A program made the position numbers and the translations under genes. The notes beneath the pieces are model-generated. The model ran no database searches. It was not told the origin of the DNA and was given only the letters and a program-made list of their open reading frames with translations. DNA of 32,780 nt from a virus: the UHGV virus genome UHGV-0305798, one strand, 5' to 3'. Position 1 is the stretch's first letter. Each line of letters starts with the position of its first letter. Of the stretch, positions 2,162 to 26,008 are shown piece by piece.

Positions 2162-2880
2162 CAATTGACTATCAGGCACTGCGTGAAAAGGCAGAGAAAG
2201 CAACGTGTGGTGTGTGGTCGCTCGAATATGGAGAGGGACGATTTGATGGTGATGATGCACTAATTCATCGCGAGGTTGCTGGATATATTCCTATTTGCAG
2301 AATTGAAGGAGCGCATCCAGAAAGCCGTTTCTATGAAGATTTCCAAATGGAACAGCAGGCCAATGCTGAATTCATCGCCGCAGCCAATCCAGCTACCGTG
2401 CTGGCACAACTGGATGAAAGGGAAAGAAACCAGCAATACATCAAACGCCGTGACCAGGAGAACGAGGATATTGCGCTTACGGTTGGGAAGCTGCGCGTTG
2501 AGCTTGAAGCAGCAAAATCAAAACTCAACGAGCAGCGCGAGTATTACGAAGGTGTTATCTCGGATGGAAGTAAGCGCATAGCAGAACTGGAAGCGCGGGA
2601 AATAAAACCAGCCAAAGGTGAAGTTCTGGTCGTTGTATCTGGTTTTACTGGTTGCGGAAAAAGCGCCATTGCCGGGGAAATAGAAATCGCGATGAAGGCT
2701 ATTGGTGTACCGGTTAAGTGGACTAATGGCGATGCAGAAAAGCGCATGACTGGCGCTGACTGGCTGACTGCGATTGAGATGTACAAACCAACTGTGCGCA
2801 TCGTGGAAGTTAATGTGCCACGCGCCGCTGGAATTCGCACCAAAGGAGATGCAGGAGAGCAAAGCGATGAAAAACCGTAA
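2158..2880 (+). CDS. Ea22-like coiled-coil protein with C-terminal Walker-A-like motif
   Basis: ATG at 2158 overlaps the upstream stop (ATGA). N-terminal half reads as a charged coiled coil resembling lambdoid Ea22/Ead-family proteins (from recall). C-terminal GFTGCGKS matches the GxxxxGK[ST] P-loop pattern. Alternative start at 2149. Confidence 0.5.
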   Translation: MTIDYQALREKAEKATCGVWSLEYGEGRFDGDDALIHREVAGYIPICRIEGAHPESRFYEDFQMEQQANAEFIAAANPATVLAQLDERERNQQYIKRRDQENEDIALTVGKLRVELEAAKSKLNEQREYYEGVISDGSKRIAELEAREIKPAKGEVLVVVSGFTGCGKSAIAGEIEIAMKAIGVPVKWTNGDAEKRMTGADWLTAIEMYKPTVRIVEVNVPRAAGIRTKGDAGEQSDEKP

Positions 2881-4825: not shown

Positions 4826-5422
4826 ATGATGCCTGCTGAACCTAAAACCTATAAACGCAAATCAACGCAATTTAAGCCACTAACAGCAATGCAGGAGGCT
4901 TATTGCCAGTCATACATCAAAACGCCTGAAAACCAGACTCAGGCAGCGATTAACGCAGGATTCTCCCCAAATACAGCGGCAGTTAAAGCCAGTGTCATGA
5001 TGCGCGATGAACGCATTCAAAAACGGATTGCCGAGTTGATGGAGGAGCGCAACAAACGAATGCGCGTCAGTGCTGATTACGTTCTCATGCGCCTGGTGGA
5101 GATCGACCAGATGGACGTGATCGACATCCTCAACGACGATGGGAGCCTTAAACCAATCCGCGAGTGGCCGAAAATCTGGCGCACTACGCTTAGCGGCTTT
5201 GATCTGTCATCGACCATCATGAACATGAACGAGGATTCGATAGAGACAATCCTCAAAAAAATTAAATGGCCTGACAAGGTGAAGAACCTTGAGCTGATTG
5301 GTAAGCATGTTGATGTCAACGCGTTCAAAGAACGCCTGGATGTTAATGTGAATGTGACAATTGCTGATCGCATAGCGGCAGCCAGGAAGAGACTGAAAGA
5401 ACGTCAGGATGGCAATCAGTGA
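4826..5422 (+). CDS. terminase small subunit
   Basis: Contains the TerS-type helix-turn-helix block (LTAMQEAYCQSY...QTQAAINAGFSPNTAAVKAS...IQKRIAELMEER). Start placed at ATG 4826 after GGTGG; the ORF-track start 4748 would add an implausible hydrophobic extension. Overlaps the large subunit start. Confidence 0.8.
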   Translation: MMPAEPKTYKRKSTQFKPLTAMQEAYCQSYIKTPENQTQAAINAGFSPNTAAVKASVMMRDERIQKRIAELMEERNKRMRVSADYVLMRLVEIDQMDVIDILNDDGSLKPIREWPKIWRTTLSGFDLSSTIMNMNEDSIETILKKIKWPDKVKNLELIGKHVDVNAFKERLDVNVNVTIADRIAAARKRLKERQDGNQ

Positions 5423-6894
5423 CAGATACAGCGTTATCTCCTGAAGAGCAGTTGATCGAGGATATTGCAGGGTTCACTCACGATCCGCTTGGCTATGCCC
5501 TCTATGCGTTCCCGTGGGGGGAAGAAGGGACTGAACTGGCACATGCTACCGGCCCACGTCAGTGGCAGGCTGATGCGTTCCGAGAGATACGTGATCACCT
5601 GCAGAATCCAGAGACGCGATATCAGCCGCTTATGCTGGCACGTGCTTCTGGTCACGGTATTGGTAAATCCGCATTCATCTCAATGCTGATCAACTGGGGC
5701 ATGTCCACTTGCGAGGATTGTAAGGTCGTGGTGACCGCCAACACCGACAACCAGCTACGAACGAAGACCTGGCCGGAAATTATCAAGTGGTCAAACCTTG
5801 CTATCACGAAAGACTGGTTTACCTGTACCGCTACCGCGATGTACAGCAATGACCCTGGGCACGACAAGCGGTGGCGAGCTGACGCAATCCCCTGGTCTGA
5901 GCACAACACTGAGGCGTTCGCCGGACTACACAACGAGCGCAAACGCATCATCGTGGTATTCGATGAAGCGTCGAACATTGCGGATCTGGTGTGGGAAGTT
6001 GCTGAGGGTGCGCTTACGGACGAAGACACTGAGATTATCTGGGTAGCGTTCGGAAACCCTACACGTAACACCGGGCGTTTCCGCGAATGTTTCCGCAAAT
6101 ATAAACACCGCTGGAAAACTGCGCAGATTGACAGCCGGACGGTGGAAGGCACTAACAAACAGCAGTTGCAGAAATGGGTTGATGACTACGGGGAAGATAG
6201 CGACTTCGTTAAAATCCGTGTGCGCGGCATATTCCCTGATGCATCTGAATTGCAGTTTATCCCTACCGGTCTTACTGATGAGGCAATGAAACGGGTGGTA
6301 ACCGCTGCGCAGGTTGCACATGCTCCGGTGATAATCGGCGTTGACCCGGCATACTCAGGCGTTGATGACGCGGTGATATACCTGCGGCAGGGGCTGCACA
6401 GTAAGGTGCTATGGACTGGTAACAAGACCACCGACGATCTGATTATGGCGAAGCGTATCGCTGACTTTGAAGACCAGTATCAGGCTGACGCGGTGTTCAT
6501 CGACTTCGGTTACGGAACCGGTTTGAAGTCAATCGGTGATGGCTGGGGACGTACATGGCAACTTGTTCCGTTCGGCGGTGCGTCCACTGACCCGCAGATG
6601 CTTAACAAGCGTGGGGAGATGTTCAACTCATGTAAGACATGGCTGAGGCTGGGCGGCATGCTGGATGACCAGGAAACTGCAGACGACCTGTCAGCGGCAG
6701 AGTACAAAGTTCGTGTGGACGGTAAAATCGTTATCGAACCGAAGGAAGATATCAAGGAGCGGCTTGGGCGTTCGCCGGGTAAAGGCGATGCGCTACTGCT
6801 GACGTTTGCTTTCCCTGTGTCGAAGCGTCTGCGAATTCCTGGGCAGCAGAACCAGCAAGGCAAGGCCATCACAGATTATGACCCGTATGCTTAA
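5419..6894 (+). CDS. terminase large subunit
   Basis: 491 aa with Walker-A-like ATPase motif (ARASGHGIGKS) and C-terminal nuclease-type acidic motifs (VVFDEAS, GVDPAYSG). GTG start at 5419 preceded by AGGATGG. Confidence 0.9.
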   Translation: MTDTALSPEEQLIEDIAGFTHDPLGYALYAFPWGEEGTELAHATGPRQWQADAFREIRDHLQNPETRYQPLMLARASGHGIGKSAFISMLINWGMSTCEDCKVVVTANTDNQLRTKTWPEIIKWSNLAITKDWFTCTATAMYSNDPGHDKRWRADAIPWSEHNTEAFAGLHNERKRIIVVFDEASNIADLVWEVAEGALTDEDTEIIWVAFGNPTRNTGRFRECFRKYKHRWKTAQIDSRTVEGTNKQQLQKWVDDYGEDSDFVKIRVRGIFPDASELQFIPTGLTDEAMKRVVTAAQVAHAPVIIGVDPAYSGVDDAVIYLRQGLHSKVLWTGNKTTDDLIMAKRIADFEDQYQADAVFIDFGYGTGLKSIGDGWGRTWQLVPFGGASTDPQMLNKRGEMFNSCKTWLRLGGMLDDQETADDLSAAEYKVRVDGKIVIEPKEDIKERLGRSPGKGDALLLTFAFPVSKRLRIPGQQNQQGKAITDYDPYA

Positions 6895-6984: not shown

Positions 6985-7407
6985 TTAGAAGGTTATTTTA
7001 TCGAATGCGGCGTTGATTGCCTTGGCGTCCTGCTCAGCACCAACCACATCAAGTAAAGATCTTTTACTAAGCACTTCAGCCAGGCATTGTAACTTCATGT
7101 TGTATAAGTTTTCGCGCATGTAATCATCATCACTTTTTTCTTTGGCGTATACAGCGCGAGAAATATCAAACACATTGCCTTTTTCCATTTCAGTTTTCTG
7201 CGCTGAAATCCAGTCATGGCAAGTAACTCCTATTCCATGGTCATCGCTAAGCGTTAACCCGGCAAGTCGCTCACCTGGAATTGCTTCACAAAGCATTTCA
7301 TTTCCTGCAAAAACACCATAAAAAATTGAGTCATCACCCTGAACAATGCGTACATATTTGCACGGCCATTCATTTAGATATTTAGCTAGCATGTCGGCTG
7401 TTTTCAT
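6985..7407 (-). CDS. hypothetical protein (140 aa), reverse-strand insert between terminase and portal
   Basis: ATG at 7407 preceded by AAGGTGAG; clean ORF; looks AT-richer than flanking genes by eye; no family recognised. Confidence 0.6.
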   Translation of the reverse strand: MKTADMLAKYLNEWPCKYVRIVQGDDSIFYGVFAGNEMLCEAIPGERLAGLTLSDDHGIGVTCHDWISAQKTEMEKGNVFDISRAVYAKEKSDDDYMRENLYNMKLQCLAEVLSKRSLLDVVGAEQDAKAINAAFDKITF

Positions 7408-7424
7408 GATCTCACCTTAAAAAA

Positions 7425-7448
7425 ATGCCCGGCGAACCGGGCTGTACT
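7425..7448 (-). terminator. rho-independent terminator (minus strand) between tRNA and the 140-aa gene
   Basis: Minus-strand reading GCCCGG-ttcg-CCGGGC followed by ATTTTTTT, immediately upstream of the gene's RBS. Confidence 0.4.
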
Positions 7449-7572
7449 GGTTTACAGCATGAAGTCATCGCAATGGCGTCCTGCTGTAAAAAGGGCGGTG
7501 ATAGTTCTTCAAGGGAAACCATCACCGCCAAGCCCCTGGAACTTCTGGCATCACGGTCCTTAGGCGTGATTC

Positions 7573-7649
7573 TGGCGTGGCATGCAGGATTCGAACCTGC
7601 GACCAACCGCTTAGAAGGCGGTTGCTCTGTCCGACTGAGCTAATGCCAC
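7573..7649 (-). tRNA. tRNA-Arg (anticodon UCU)
   Basis: Minus-strand sequence GTGGCATTAGCTCAGTCGGACAGAGCAACCGCCTTCTAAGCGGTTGGTCGCAGGTTCGAATCCTGCATGCCACGCCA folds as a cloverleaf: 7-bp acceptor stem, D arm, anticodon stem ACCGC/GCGGT with loop CTTCTAA, T loop TTCGAAT, encoded CCA end. Confidence 0.85.
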
Positions 7650-7971
7650 AACGCTGAGAGCACTTAGCCTGTTAAGGCGCCACACTTTGTCGCGGCTCCA
7701 TAAATGCTCTCATCGTTGTACCCTCGTCTCTTCCGAGGCGTCACACCGAATCGCCGGGATGGTGAATCCCCGTGCGCGGAATAAAACCGCTCGACTTGCA
7801 CATTCCGGCTACCTGGTTCGTTTGCCCGAGCAAGGGAGGGTGCCCCTTAAACGTATCCAGACCGCTATCGGCGCATGTGCCATACGCCGTACTGCTCAAA
7901 ATAAAAGCTCACTCCACCTGTTTAATTTAACGACAAGCCAGTCAGGTTAGTAACCAGAATGAGCTCTTTAG

Positions 7972-7986
7972 TTACCTGAAAGGTAA
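7972..7986. promoter_or_regulatory. palindromic site TTACC-TGAAA-GGTAA (copy B)
   Basis: Read directly; about 90 bp upstream of the small ORF and portal operon; 17-mer TTACCTGAAAGGTAATA is identical to copy E. Confidence 0.4.
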
Positions 7987-8076
7987 TAATTCACGCGTTA
8001 AATGTCAACCTTCTACGATAAATAAATCATATGTGGTTAAATTGGTAATAATTTAATTGCGTACGGAGTCATTGAT

Positions 8077-8283
8077 ATGTGCATGGGTAGCTCACCATCA
8101 GTGCCTGCAACACCAGAAGTTCAGGCAGCACCACAGGAGCAGGATGCCGCCGTTGTTGATGCCCGCGACGAAGAAACACGTCGCCGTCGCGCTGCTGCTG
8201 GTCGTAGTTCTACGCTGCTTACCGGTTCTCAGGGCGACACATCAACCGCTAATACCAGCGGTAAAACGCTGCTTGGTCAGTAA
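8077..8283 (+). CDS. small hypothetical protein (68 aa)
   Basis: ATG at 8077 preceded by GGAGTCATTGA, the same 11-nt initiation region that precedes the portal ATG. Low-complexity product; the overlapping frame 8057..8296 is less convincing. Confidence 0.4.
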   Translation: MCMGSSPSVPATPEVQAAPQEQDAAVVDARDEETRRRRAAAGRSSTLLTGSQGDTSTANTSGKTLLGQ

Positions 8284-8297
8284 CCGGAGTCATTGAA

Positions 8298-9977
8298 ATG
8301 GCGGAAACAACTAAAGAGCGATTGAACAAACAGTTCGCACAACTTGAAAGCGAGCGTCAGTCGTTCGAGCCGCACTGGCGCGAGTTGAGTGATTACATCA
8401 ACCCGCGTGGTTCCCGCTTTCTGACTTCTGAGGTCAACCGTAACGATCGACGCAATACACGCATTATTGATTCGACCGGGACTATGGCGGCGCGCACTCT
8501 CGCCAGCGGCATGATGTCAGGCATCACAAGCCCTGCGCGTCCGTGGTTTCGCCTGGCTACGCCAGATCCTGAAATGATGGATTATGGTCCTGTTAAGTTG
8601 TGGCTCGAGGCGGTGCAGAACCGCATGAACGATATGTTCAATAAGTCGAATCTCTACCAGTCTCTTCCGCAGTTATACGGAAGCCTCGGCACATACAGCA
8701 CTGGTGCAATGGCGGTGCTGGAGGATGACGAGGACATCATTCGCACAATGCCATTCCCGATAGGCAGTTACTACCTGGCTAACTCACCTCGTGGCAGTGT
8801 GGACACCTGTTTTCGCAAGTTCTCTATGACTGTTCGTCAGCTTGTTCAGGAGTTCGGGCTAAATAACGTCAGCGAATCCGTAAAAAGCATGTGGGAAAGC
8901 GGCACCTACGAGAAGTGGATTGACGTGATGCATTCGGTTTACCCGAACATTGACCGCGATACATCGAAGCTGGATAGCAAGAACAAGCCATTCAAATCGG
9001 TTTATTACGAGGTTGGTGGCGATAACGACAAGTTGTTGCGTGAGTCCGGATTTGATGAGTTTCCAATTATGGCTCCGCGCTGGGAAGTTAATGGCGAAGA
9101 TGTTTATGGATCATCATGCCCGGGTATGCTGGCGCTTGGACCTGTTAAGGCATTGCAGCTTCTCCAGAAGCGCAAGTCGCAGTTGATTGATAAAGCCACC
9201 AATCCGCCGATGGTTGCTCCGACTTCCCTCAAGAATCAGCGCGCCTCCCTTCTTCCTGGCGACATCACGTATATCGATCAGATTACTGGTCAGGATGGTT
9301 TCAGGCCTGCTTATCTGGTTAACCCCAGTACAGCAGATCTGGTAGCAGACATTCAGGACACTCGTCAAATCATTAACAGCGCCTACTTTGTCGATCTGTT
9401 CATGATGTTGCAGAACATCAATACCCGCTCGATGCCTGTTGAAGCGGTGATCGAAATGAAAGAAGAAAAACTTCTGATGTTGGGGCCGGTTCTGGAGCGT
9501 CTGAACGACGAATGTCTTAACCCTCTCATTGACCGCGCTTTCTCGATGATGGTGCGTAAAAACATGCTGCCGCCACCGCCTGACGCGATGGAAGGTATGC
9601 CCCTGAAGGTCGAATACATTTCCGTCATGGCTCAGGCGCAGAAGTCTATCGGCCTGTCCAGTCTGGCGTCCACGGTTAACTTCATTGGTCAACTTGCGCA
9701 AGCGAAACCAGAAGCTCTCGACAAACTCAACGTTGATCAGGCGATCGATGCATTCGCTGATATGTCCGGAGTGTCTCCAACCGTCATTGTTCCGCAGGAA
9801 CAGGTTGAGCAGGCTCGCCAGCAACGGGCACAGCAACAACAGCAGCAACAAATGATGGCGATGGGGATGGCGGCGGCACAGGGTGCCAAGACGCTAAGCG
9901 AAGCTAAAACTTCGGATCCGAGTGTTTTGTCAGCTATGGCGAATGCAGTTAGTGGTCAGGGTGGGCAATCACAATGA
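8298..9977 (+). CDS. portal (head-to-tail connector) protein, T7 gp8-like
   Basis: 559 aa; position after terminase; Gln/Ala/Met-rich C-terminal tail (QQQQQQMMAMGMAAAQGA) resembles the T7 gp8 C-terminus (recall-based). Confidence 0.8.
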   Translation: MAETTKERLNKQFAQLESERQSFEPHWRELSDYINPRGSRFLTSEVNRNDRRNTRIIDSTGTMAARTLASGMMSGITSPARPWFRLATPDPEMMDYGPVKLWLEAVQNRMNDMFNKSNLYQSLPQLYGSLGTYSTGAMAVLEDDEDIIRTMPFPIGSYYLANSPRGSVDTCFRKFSMTVRQLVQEFGLNNVSESVKSMWESGTYEKWIDVMHSVYPNIDRDTSKLDSKNKPFKSVYYEVGGDNDKLLRESGFDEFPIMAPRWEVNGEDVYGSSCPGMLALGPVKALQLLQKRKSQLIDKATNPPMVAPTSLKNQRASLLPGDITYIDQITGQDGFRPAYLVNPSTADLVADIQDTRQIINSAYFVDLFMMLQNINTRSMPVEAVIEMKEEKLLMLGPVLERLNDECLNPLIDRAFSMMVRKNMLPPPPDAMEGMPLKVEYISVMAQAQKSIGLSSLASTVNFIGQLAQAKPEALDKLNVDQAIDAFADMSGVSPTVIVPQEQVEQARQQRAQQQQQQQMMAMGMAAAQGAKTLSEAKTSDPSVLSAMANAVSGQGGQSQ

Positions 9978-25726: not shown

Positions 25727-25880
25727 GGCGATCACCTTTGTAGTTAGGTTAATCACCACCGCTGAGACCAATCAGATGGTGGTGAACTGTGCAGAGTTGG
25801 TCTTACCGGCTACAAAGGAACCCGGCGCACCTTTCGGTGCCCCCACACAGCCCACCATAGAATAGGTGCGCTTTACACAT

Positions 25881-25906
25881 AAAAAAACCGCTTATGCGGC
25901 ATATGT
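25881..25906 (-). terminator. possible terminator (minus strand) downstream of the small LexA-box gene
   Basis: Minus-strand GCCGC-ataa-GCGGU followed by seven U; short stem, so moderate. Confidence 0.35.
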
Positions 25907-25993
25907 GCCTCTGTAGTAATCCGGGAGACCAATCCCGGCACTGGATTTTGCCAGTGCCCGATTACTATGGCACAAGAGGAGTGCGATGTAAAT

Positions 25994-26008
25994 TTACCGC
26001 AAAGGTAA
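25994..26008. promoter_or_regulatory. palindromic site TTACC-GCAAA-GGTAA (copy D)
   Basis: Read directly; extended palindrome ATTTACC-GCAAA-GGTAAAT; lies between the antirepressor and the small paralogous gene. Confidence 0.4.

Follow-up and report, generated by a model that had tools for sequence, protein, structure and literature searches.

The stretch of DNA analyzed here (UHGV virus genome UHGV-0305798; 32,780 nucleotides [nt] in all, referred to below as the window) is of the epsilon15-like Uetakevirus type: over a 901-bp query (7400-8300), it is 99.9% identical to Escherichia phage vB_EcoP_PAS61 and approximately 98% identical to phiV10. Its interval 7650-8056, between a tRNA-Arg gene and a short open reading frame (ORF) ahead of the portal gene, carries on the minus strand an RNA core of approximately 170 nt, whose conserved structure, strand, non-coding nature, distribution, and genomic contexts were established by comparative analysis. 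We read the minus strand, the strand of the tRNA, as one transcription unit in the order promoter and operator, hairpin P0, core (7890..7719), hairpin P6, tRNA-Arg(UCU), two terminators, and gp03. The existence of a structured RNA at this locus is highly probable, and positions ~7647-7973 (minus strand) are best explained as the first two-thirds, counted from the 5' end, of a non-coding transcript under operator control. No Rfam family contains the core, which is best filed as a new phage-encoded structured RNA family.

A conserved, pseudoknotted RNA core

The elements of the RNA, listed from its 5' end, are as follows.

7903..7968, minus strand: hairpin P0, 5' of the core, with a 13-bp stem (7956-7968 / 7903-7915) and a loop of ~40 nt
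7719..7890, minus strand: conserved RNA core, ~170 nt, five helices plus a pseudoknot
7869-7889, minus strand: P1 hairpin, CGGCGUAU-GGCAC-AUGCGCCG, with loop GGCAC
7857-7861 / 7812-7816, minus strand: P2, enclosing a variable hairpin
7795-7813, minus strand: near-invariant unpaired 19-mer GGUAGCCGGAAUGUGCAAG
No fixed coordinates, minus strand: P3, a variable hairpin
7793-7795 / 7753-7755 plus 7767-7770 / 7756-7759, minus strand: P4, with 7-nt loop UCACCA
7761-7764 with 7744-7747, minus strand: pseudoknot, CACC of the P4 loop with GGUG downstream
7734-7738 / 7722-7726, minus strand: P5, CCUCG-GAAGAGA-CGAGG, with loop GAAGAGA
7647..7720, minus strand: long hairpin P6 (UACAAC-GAUGAGAGCAUU... / ...AGUGCUCUCAGC-GUUGUG), ~19 bp, interrupted by one A.G mismatch, with a hypervariable apex

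Multiple potential stems had been noticed from the sequence alone. They exceed chance expectation, as the predicted minus-strand transcript of 563 nt folds with a z score of -4.46 that none of 100 shuffled sequences equaled, and covariation supports them. Helices were assigned by eye and with RNAalifold in an alignment of 52 copies less than 90% identical. Standard pairs occupy 95.9% of 1,706 pair cells in these copies, compared with 26-48% after sliding the 3' partners by 1-3 columns. Changes on both sides of a pair compensate each other at 13 pairs (119 cells), and none of 500 shuffles attained the observed values. The pseudoknot itself covaries: at pair 188/208, 47 copies have CG and 5 have AU, with CACC/GGUG becoming AACC/GGUU in lambdoid phages. 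The covariation check proposed in the sequence-only reading thus revealed a conserved structure. Possible further contacts are GCAC of the P1 loop (L1) with GUGC of the 19-mer and UCC/CUUG of the P2a loop with GGA/CAAG, each with an invariant partner.

G-U pairs are kept in most copies (e.g., UG in 52 of 52 and UG in 49 of 52) and would be A.C mismatches on the opposite strand, and all 51 tRNAs found within 600 nt of a copy are co-stranded with the core. The RNA sense is therefore the minus strand of the window.

The absence of a convincing coding frame had also been suggested and is borne out; a short conserved protein gene, which would have refuted the earlier reading, did not emerge. The only long ORF of the interval (7687..7950, plus strand) encodes an arginine-rich product of 87 amino acids (aa); together with three other short ORFs, it contributes to a set of 45- to 87-aa frames on both strands, and over homologous copies some phage records carry hypothetical-protein annotations. 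A short protein gene, whether this ORF or a minus-strand ORF of 45-52 aa, is nevertheless improbable in the extreme. None of the four interval ORFs has a Pfam match, each reading frame is open in at most 22 of the 52 copies, differences among the core lengths (146-178 nt) are not multiples of three, and the variable columns lack codon periodicity (27/28/27 in the 52 copies). The annotated ORFs, moreover, vary in strand and frame among records.

The Rfam scan that had been proposed matched the core to no family in two copies, whether at gathering scores or at E ≤ 10. Within 7350-8350 of the window, Rfam 15 gave, to that threshold, the tRNA and chance hits outside 7650-8056; a lambdoid copy gave chance hits alone (E > 1). 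Neither ARAGORN nor the Rfam tRNA model placed a cloverleaf in 7650-8056, the sole call being 7573-7649. A covariance model built from the nested helices (R1) detected, in full-sensitivity searches, a single copy in the window (7719-7890, minus strand; 136 bits, E = 1e-42) and one copy in the whole genome of phage mEp460, and found no copy in the K-12 prophages e14 and CPS-53. Loci recovered through a different anchor, the P1 hairpin, and not used in model building scored 130-148 bits with R1. The 19-mer is exact in most of these loci and carries one substitution in each of five newly found ones; its recovery through an independent anchor indicates that the constraint on it is independent of neighboring genes. 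The new family is defined by an R1 score of ≥130 bits and the arrangement P1 (GGCAC loop)-P2-19-mer-P4 (UCACCA loop, pseudoknot)-P5 (GAAGAGA loop), which includes the window core.

Long hairpins flank the core. P0 (inverted repeat I20) appears in the centroid fold of the whole transcript, and an analogous hairpin occupies its position in Klebsiella phage ST512-KPC3phi13.3. P6 (inverted repeat I2) is present in both the minimum-free-energy (MFE) and centroid folds, and its 3'-terminal 3 nt double as the start of tRNA-Arg. Its general form is YRCAAC-GAUGAGAGCAYU... / ...AGUGCUCUCAGC-GUUGYR. Among 37 variants, the stem covaries between types, the tip is hypervariable, and the base-to-base length ranges from 48 to 137 nt. 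P6 is a candidate RNase III-type processing stem.

Distribution and genomic contexts

Sensitive BLAST with 7650-8076 showed that 7650-7890 is approximately 82% identical to sequences of unrelated lambdoid phages (cdtI, mEp460, Ayreon, 2H10, and Stx2c and Stx2a phages), and ~160 bp of the element also occur in P1, P7, D6, and SJ46. The element is present in 1,840 of 5,426 complete Escherichia coli genomes, with 554 places on plasmids of P1-like size, and is annotated nowhere. The exact 19-mer was found in 24 contigs of a species-representative genome collection, all but two of them from named Enterobacterales genera. The two exceptions are metagenome-assembled contigs labeled Oscillospiraceae and Bacillota; one (L023) has a chance match in coding sequence and the other (L035) a full copy. 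More than 120 IMG/VR contigs among the matches listed contain the exact 19-mer.

The sequences bordering the copies fall into 16 kinds upstream and 13 kinds downstream. Lambdoid copies are found between a cI-like repressor gene and the early-left genes, with the same orientation throughout. The order in mEp460 is cI, a terminator, OL/PL, ~45 nt, the core, the region of the published RNA "sRNA-17", terminator T1, a second terminator-like hairpin, and yfdP, and the operators have the form TTGC-N7-GCAA, in OR as well. The P1 copy sits 2.4 kb into the ban operon, which is controlled by C1 (Oban); it is placed between trnI and ban and starts 15 nt after tRNA-Ile. The P1 record also places a "dicF-like region" (5300-5401) at the opening of this operon, so that, with three tRNAs and the core also present, the early ban operon holds several non-coding RNAs. 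In Uetakevirus-like phages of Escherichia, Klebsiella, and Salmonella, the element precedes tRNA-Arg. In three lambdoid IMG/VR contigs (L117, L061, and L074), P6 gives way to a bidirectional terminator hairpin ~90-150 nt past the 19-mer. Behind it come a perfect rrn-type boxA, TGCTCTTTAACAA, and, in L117 at least, a convergent 152-aa gene; this arrangement looks like a moron insertion beside a nut-like site.

A tRNA lies within 600 nt of 50 of 158 copies, always on the same strand and at fixed distances. This spacing and common orientation would suit a cis-acting leader or helper for the folding, protection, or maturation timing of the adjoining tRNA or tRNA-like RNA, and the tRNA slot of lambdoids is filled by an RNA (sRNA-17) with a cloverleaf-like MFE fold and a 7-bp terminal stem. 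Such a role is nonetheless unlikely: the P1 tRNA is upstream, not downstream, of the core, the tRNA identities differ (Arg-UCU and Ile2-CAU), many copies have no detectable tRNA, sRNA-17 has no tRNA match and an insignificant fold, and ordinary tRNA leaders require no conserved 170-nt pseudoknotted domain. Homology between the window and lambdoids stops at 7646-7650, the tRNA start, and the core has no accompanying tRNA in lambdoid prophages and follows one in P1; it is thus an autonomous, widespread structured RNA family. The earlier proposal of a long tRNA leader or small RNA was accordingly right as to strand and direction and understated as to scope.

The lambdoid copies bring up the main rival explanation, a cis-acting antitermination leader. 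The core would, while being transcribed, modify RNA polymerase, by itself or with the help of a factor from phage or host, to pass the terminators that come next (T1 and T2 in the window, the two ahead of yfdP in lambdoids) and reach the genes beyond, a function akin to that of HK022 put or lambda nut. The core occupies the nutL/putL slot in dozens of immunity types (cI-like repressor, operators/PL, core, and early-left genes, co-oriented), mEp460-type phages have no annotated N gene, two terminators separate the core from the first ORF in both the window and mEp460, gp03 lacks a promoter of its own, and L117-type loci place their bidirectional terminator directly after the core. Near-invariant unpaired bases would also be expected if the partner were RNA polymerase or Nus factors. 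Against this, each phage has one copy and none on the PR side, unlike putL/putR, strong terminators do not follow the core in P1 or in the lambdoid "MANSFKQ" context, and core-bearing transcripts in an E. coli K1 RS218 lysogen end at T1, with yfdP at ~0.5 reads, so that constitutive readthrough would be very low. The core is also unrelated to put in size and fold. A strict finder placed terminators downstream of the core in 51 of 124 loci and a relaxed finder in 105-111 of 125, a count that is uninformative because terminators are no more common on the sense than on the antisense strand (106 of 125). On balance we consider antitermination doubtful, if the most serious of the alternatives.

A riboswitch-like sensor, with the core as an aptamer for a host metabolite or signal that tunes early transcription or processing, has a low probability. 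The compact pseudoknotted fold, in which near-invariant unpaired nucleotides separate covarying helices, and the position in a 5' leader ahead of terminators are what a riboswitch would show, and published quantitative reverse transcription-PCR (qRT-PCR) signals across the core shift with growth phase and aeration. Yet no clear expression platform (a terminator or a sequestor of a ribosome-binding site) overlaps the core, since P6 lacks a U-tract and has a hypervariable tip, a whole tRNA separates the core from the first terminator, the P1 core is far inside its operon, and the neighboring genes vary between contexts and suggest no ligand.

Transcription, processing, and possible mode of action

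The features that frame the core in the window are listed by coordinate.

5419-6894, plus strand: TerL
6985-7407, minus strand: gp03, 140 aa, first downstream protein gene; its homologue PhiV10p03 is annotated "similar to Sf6 gene 66"
7442..7419, minus strand: intrinsic terminator T2 (hairpin 7442..7427), GCCCGG-UUCG-CCGGGC plus U7, directly before the gp03 ribosome-binding site
7529..7486, minus strand: intrinsic terminator T1 (hairpin 7529..7494), 14-bp stem and CUUUUUAC tail
7573-7649, minus strand: tRNA-Arg (anticodon UCU; gene TCT), called by ARAGORN and Rfam RF00005 (73.3 bits), abutting P6
7650-8056: interval under study
7972-7986, palindromic: operator TTACCTGAAAGGTAA ("palindrome copy B"), over the -10 element and start site
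7985..7980, minus strand: -10 element TACCTT, 17 nt from the -35 element
8008..8003, minus strand: -35 element TTGACA of a putative leftward promoter, invariant in an alignment with epsilon15 and SPN9TCW
8077-8283, plus strand: 68-aa ORF, the next plausible gene
8298-9977, plus strand: portal

The layout TTGAC(A/C)-17-TACCTT is common to Klebsiella phage ST512-KPC3phi13.3, epsilon15, and SPN9TCW, and transcription would start near 7973. A consensus promoter scan did not call this leftward promoter because its -10 element fits at only three of six positions. The palindrome pointed out earlier is real: TTACC-N5-GGTAA occurs five times in the window (4794, 7972, 24947, 25994, and 26375), compared with 0 expected. 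These copies probably mark the repressor-controlled promoters of this phage. The position over the -10 element is conserved in epsilon15 and SPN9TCW, and the epsilon15 record labels the homologous site "repressor / lysogeny".

The description of the interval as 400 bp of GC-rich sequence holds for 7650-7900 (55-60% GC), which is no richer than the flanking coding DNA (61-62% in 8100-8250), and fails for 7900-8056 (32-38%), an AT-rich promoter/operator region. Similarly, the suggested regulatory leader of the portal operon does not apply to the GC-rich part, a structured RNA on the minus strand; the AT-rich operator region 7972-8056 alone can bear on portal-side transcription. The ribosome-binding and start contexts of the 68-aa ORF and the portal gene are nearly identical, and a direct repeat, CGGAGTCATTGA(T/A)ATG, is found at 8064-8079 and 8285-8300. 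In a megablast search with 7400-8300, 65 Synechococcus phage records matched, apparently via the tRNA-Arg(UCU) gene alone.

Downstream, gp03 has no Pfam match, and the scan recognized no promoter of its own; given this and the two preceding intrinsic terminators, it apparently relies for its expression on readthrough from the RNA/tRNA transcript. The T1 loop shares UUCCCUUGA with the P2a loop of relatives. In epsilon15 (2115-2545, aligned with window 7405-8015), the promoter, P0, and the P1 hairpin are kept and the rest of the core, P6, and tRNA-Arg are lost; the deletion ends within a 13-nt repeat, GGTTCCCTTGATG, found in the P2a and T1 loops alike.

Transcription of the lambdoid core is supported indirectly by work on sRNA-17, a 193-nt RNA in the mEp460-like prophage of E. 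coli K1 RS218 (PMC7719688). When the published primer table was placed on the mEp460 sequence, sRNA-17 and the core had the same sense. The sRNA-17 5' end given in that paper falls in the 3' arm of the lambdoid P6, a few bases away from the point that corresponds to the tRNA-Arg start of the window, and its 3' end lies at T1. The qRT-PCR forward primer is located at the 5' end of the core, indicating that the core and sRNA-17 are co-transcribed and then separated, and the amplicon across the core varies with growth phase and aeration (PMC7719688). The yfdP level in the RS218 lysogen (~0.5 reads; PMC7719688) indicates that core-bearing transcripts mostly end at the terminators. The two loci share the core and P6 only: the 193-nt body of sRNA-17 (CGUUGUGGUGAAU... 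to terminator GCGGUACCAG...CUGGUACCGCUCUUUU) is absent from the window, where tRNA-Arg takes its place.

sRNA-17 itself (mEp460 2312-2504, minus strand) has a cloverleaf-like MFE fold that includes a D-arm-like hairpin and a second one abutting the 3' strand, and its terminal stem, GUGGUGA/UCACCAC, has 7 bp by sequence and 6 bp in the MFE fold. Its identification as a tRNA-like RNA was rejected, as the fold is not significant (z = -0.97) and Rfam gave no tRNA match. A 25-aa arginine-rich ORF at its start was likewise dismissed, its AUG not being conserved in other contexts.

The earlier study handled the core as DNA and did not recognize it as a structured RNA, and it reported sRNA-17 as lacking an Rfam homologue (PMC7719688). 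The fragment taken there as the "promoter of sRNA-17", for which an ArcA gel shift was reported, corresponds to the lambdoid core plus P6. It could accordingly be argued that the conserved element acts as DNA, i.e., as a promoter or ArcA-binding region, a recombination "linker" at the mosaic junctions between many flank types where the core is found, or a single-stranded-DNA signal. We regard this as very unlikely. Compensatory changes and strand-specific G-U pairs are unexpected for a promoter or duplex recombination site, no sigma-70-like promoter was found inside the core, the position of the forward primer means that the fragment is transcribed, and the gel shift needed 20-80 µM protein (PMC7719688). 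A published virulence-associated "sRNA promoter" thereby acquires a changed reading.

The interpretation that we favor, at a probability of roughly 35 to 40%, is that the core is an early RNA excised by RNase P and RNase III that acts in trans by binding a conserved host component. The RNA would be made early, once repressor leaves the operator; repressor-controlled promoters lie upstream of the core in three phage groups (Uetakeviruses, lambdoids, and P1-like phages). It could then be freed by RNase P, acting where the adjoining tRNA or tRNA-like RNA begins, together with RNase III-type cuts in the long flanking hairpins P0 and P6, and the borders of the core do coincide with a tRNA or long duplex hairpins. 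The freed RNA might act as a stable, compact molecule whose near-invariant unpaired 19-mer and loops GGCAC, UCACCA, and GAAGAGA may bind a component conserved in all enterobacterial hosts.

Several points weigh against this interpretation. The RNase III and RNase P steps are suggested by anatomy, and the position at the head of an early operon, before terminators and then genes, suits a cis role just as well. The published probe sits downstream of the core, and the rapid amplification of cDNA ends in that study cannot tell primary from processed ends (PMC7719688). In the structural comparison, the shuffle control is uncorrected for relatedness of the copies, and the slid-partner control, which corrects for relatedness, used the very sequences from which the structure came; the double-substitution counts are the more robust part of the pair evidence. 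Finally, the invariant segments have no significant complementarity to 16S, 23S, or 5S rRNA, tRNA-Ile/Ala, transfer-messenger RNA (tmRNA), RNase P RNA, or 6S RNA (45 tests, including 4.5S RNA).

The sole outlier of these tests is the P1 loop region UAUGGCACAUG (7877-7887, minus strand), which is complementary to nt 79-89 of 4.5S RNA, GCGUGUGCCGG. The pairing has a free energy (dG) of -13.5 and a z score of -4, attained by none of 100 shuffles, and as one of 45 tests it is a weak lead. The 19-mer resembles the adjacent 4.5S stretch GCCGGGAUGUAGC.

A bolder form of the argument, that the core represents a new functional class of phage RNA acting directly on conserved host machinery and the first early product of lambdoid, P1-like, and epsilon15-like temperate phages, is offered tentatively and has about one chance in four of being right. 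Possibilities under it include a polymerase-modifying antiterminator unlike put and nut and a decoy or inhibitor of a host RNA-processing or defense factor.

E. coli and its temperate phages are heavily annotated, yet this RNA domain has neither an annotation nor an Rfam family, although its carriers include about a third of complete E. coli genomes, P1, Stx-converting phages, and Uetakeviruses. Repressor-controlled early promoters transcribe it before anything else, a position that suggests involvement in the change to lytic growth. An antiterminator role would explain how lambdoid phages lacking N pass the terminators before their early-left genes; if trans-acting, the core would be a widespread host-directed phage RNA. 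R1 provides a ready covariance model for annotation.

Comparison with known systems

Some identities were considered and rejected. The ends of P0/P6, YRCAAC...GUUGYR, fit the integron attC form RYYYAAC...GTTRRRY only at YAAC/GTTR, no integrase gene adjoins the inspected loci, and the U.G and G.U pairs at the stem base point to RNA. The prophage small RNAs Pas, AgvB, and AsxR lie in the Q/lysis region and not at this locus.

The putL/putR elements of HK022 are, like the core, phage RNAs without a protein product, and the lambdoid core copies also lie just 3' of PL, ahead of terminators. However, put is ~70 nt with two stem-loops and occurs twice (at PL and PR), whereas the ~170-nt core has five helices and a pseudoknot and occurs once per phage; unlike put, it is also found far from promoters (P1) and beside tRNAs. 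With R1, the best score in the whole HK022 genome was 7 bits (E = 0.28), away from the put loci. The lambda N leader, in which nutL is accompanied by an RNase III site, is likewise a long structured early 5' leader with duplex stems suited to RNase III. The homologous interval of epsilon15, which lacks the core, has an annotated RNase III site, but on the opposite strand and over the AT-rich part. No boxA or boxB was found in the window unit: the boxA-like GCTCTTTAG at 7963 (plus strand) is the complement of a P0 arm, and the true boxA-like TGCTCTTTAACAA occurs in some lambdoid loci only, after the bidirectional terminator.

GOLLD and ROOL are Rfam families of large, ornate phage and prophage RNAs of 500-800 nt, found mainly in Firmicutes and relatives and often beside tRNA genes. 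They share with the core a phage origin and an elaborate structure; the core is far shorter (~170 nt), is confined as sampled to Enterobacterales and their phages, and matches no Rfam family at E ≤ 10. A sequence search of a paper library found no paper for the core motifs, and the P1 transcriptome literature yielded nothing relevant.

The T4 species 1 and 2 RNAs and the C4/CI RNAs of P1 and P4, which are cut by RNase P, are stable RNAs that share a transcript with tRNAs and are set free by the enzymes of tRNA processing. They resemble the core in being non-tRNA RNAs within a tRNA-containing phage transcript, with a tRNA boundary as one end. They have no sequence or structural similarity to the core, and C4 is an ~80-nt antisense RNA with known targets. 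A C4 RNA does occur elsewhere in the window: at 25775-25957 (minus strand), this antisense RNA (78.6 bits) is arranged head to tail with an isrK-like RNA (74.7 bits), and a TTACC-N5-GGTAA operator copy (25994-26008) stands immediately upstream; together they look like a P1/P7-type RNA immunity module in an epsilon15-like phage. The likeness of the core is at most one of position, to put and nut, or one to stable RNAs co-processed with phage tRNAs, and it fails the tests for membership in each of these.

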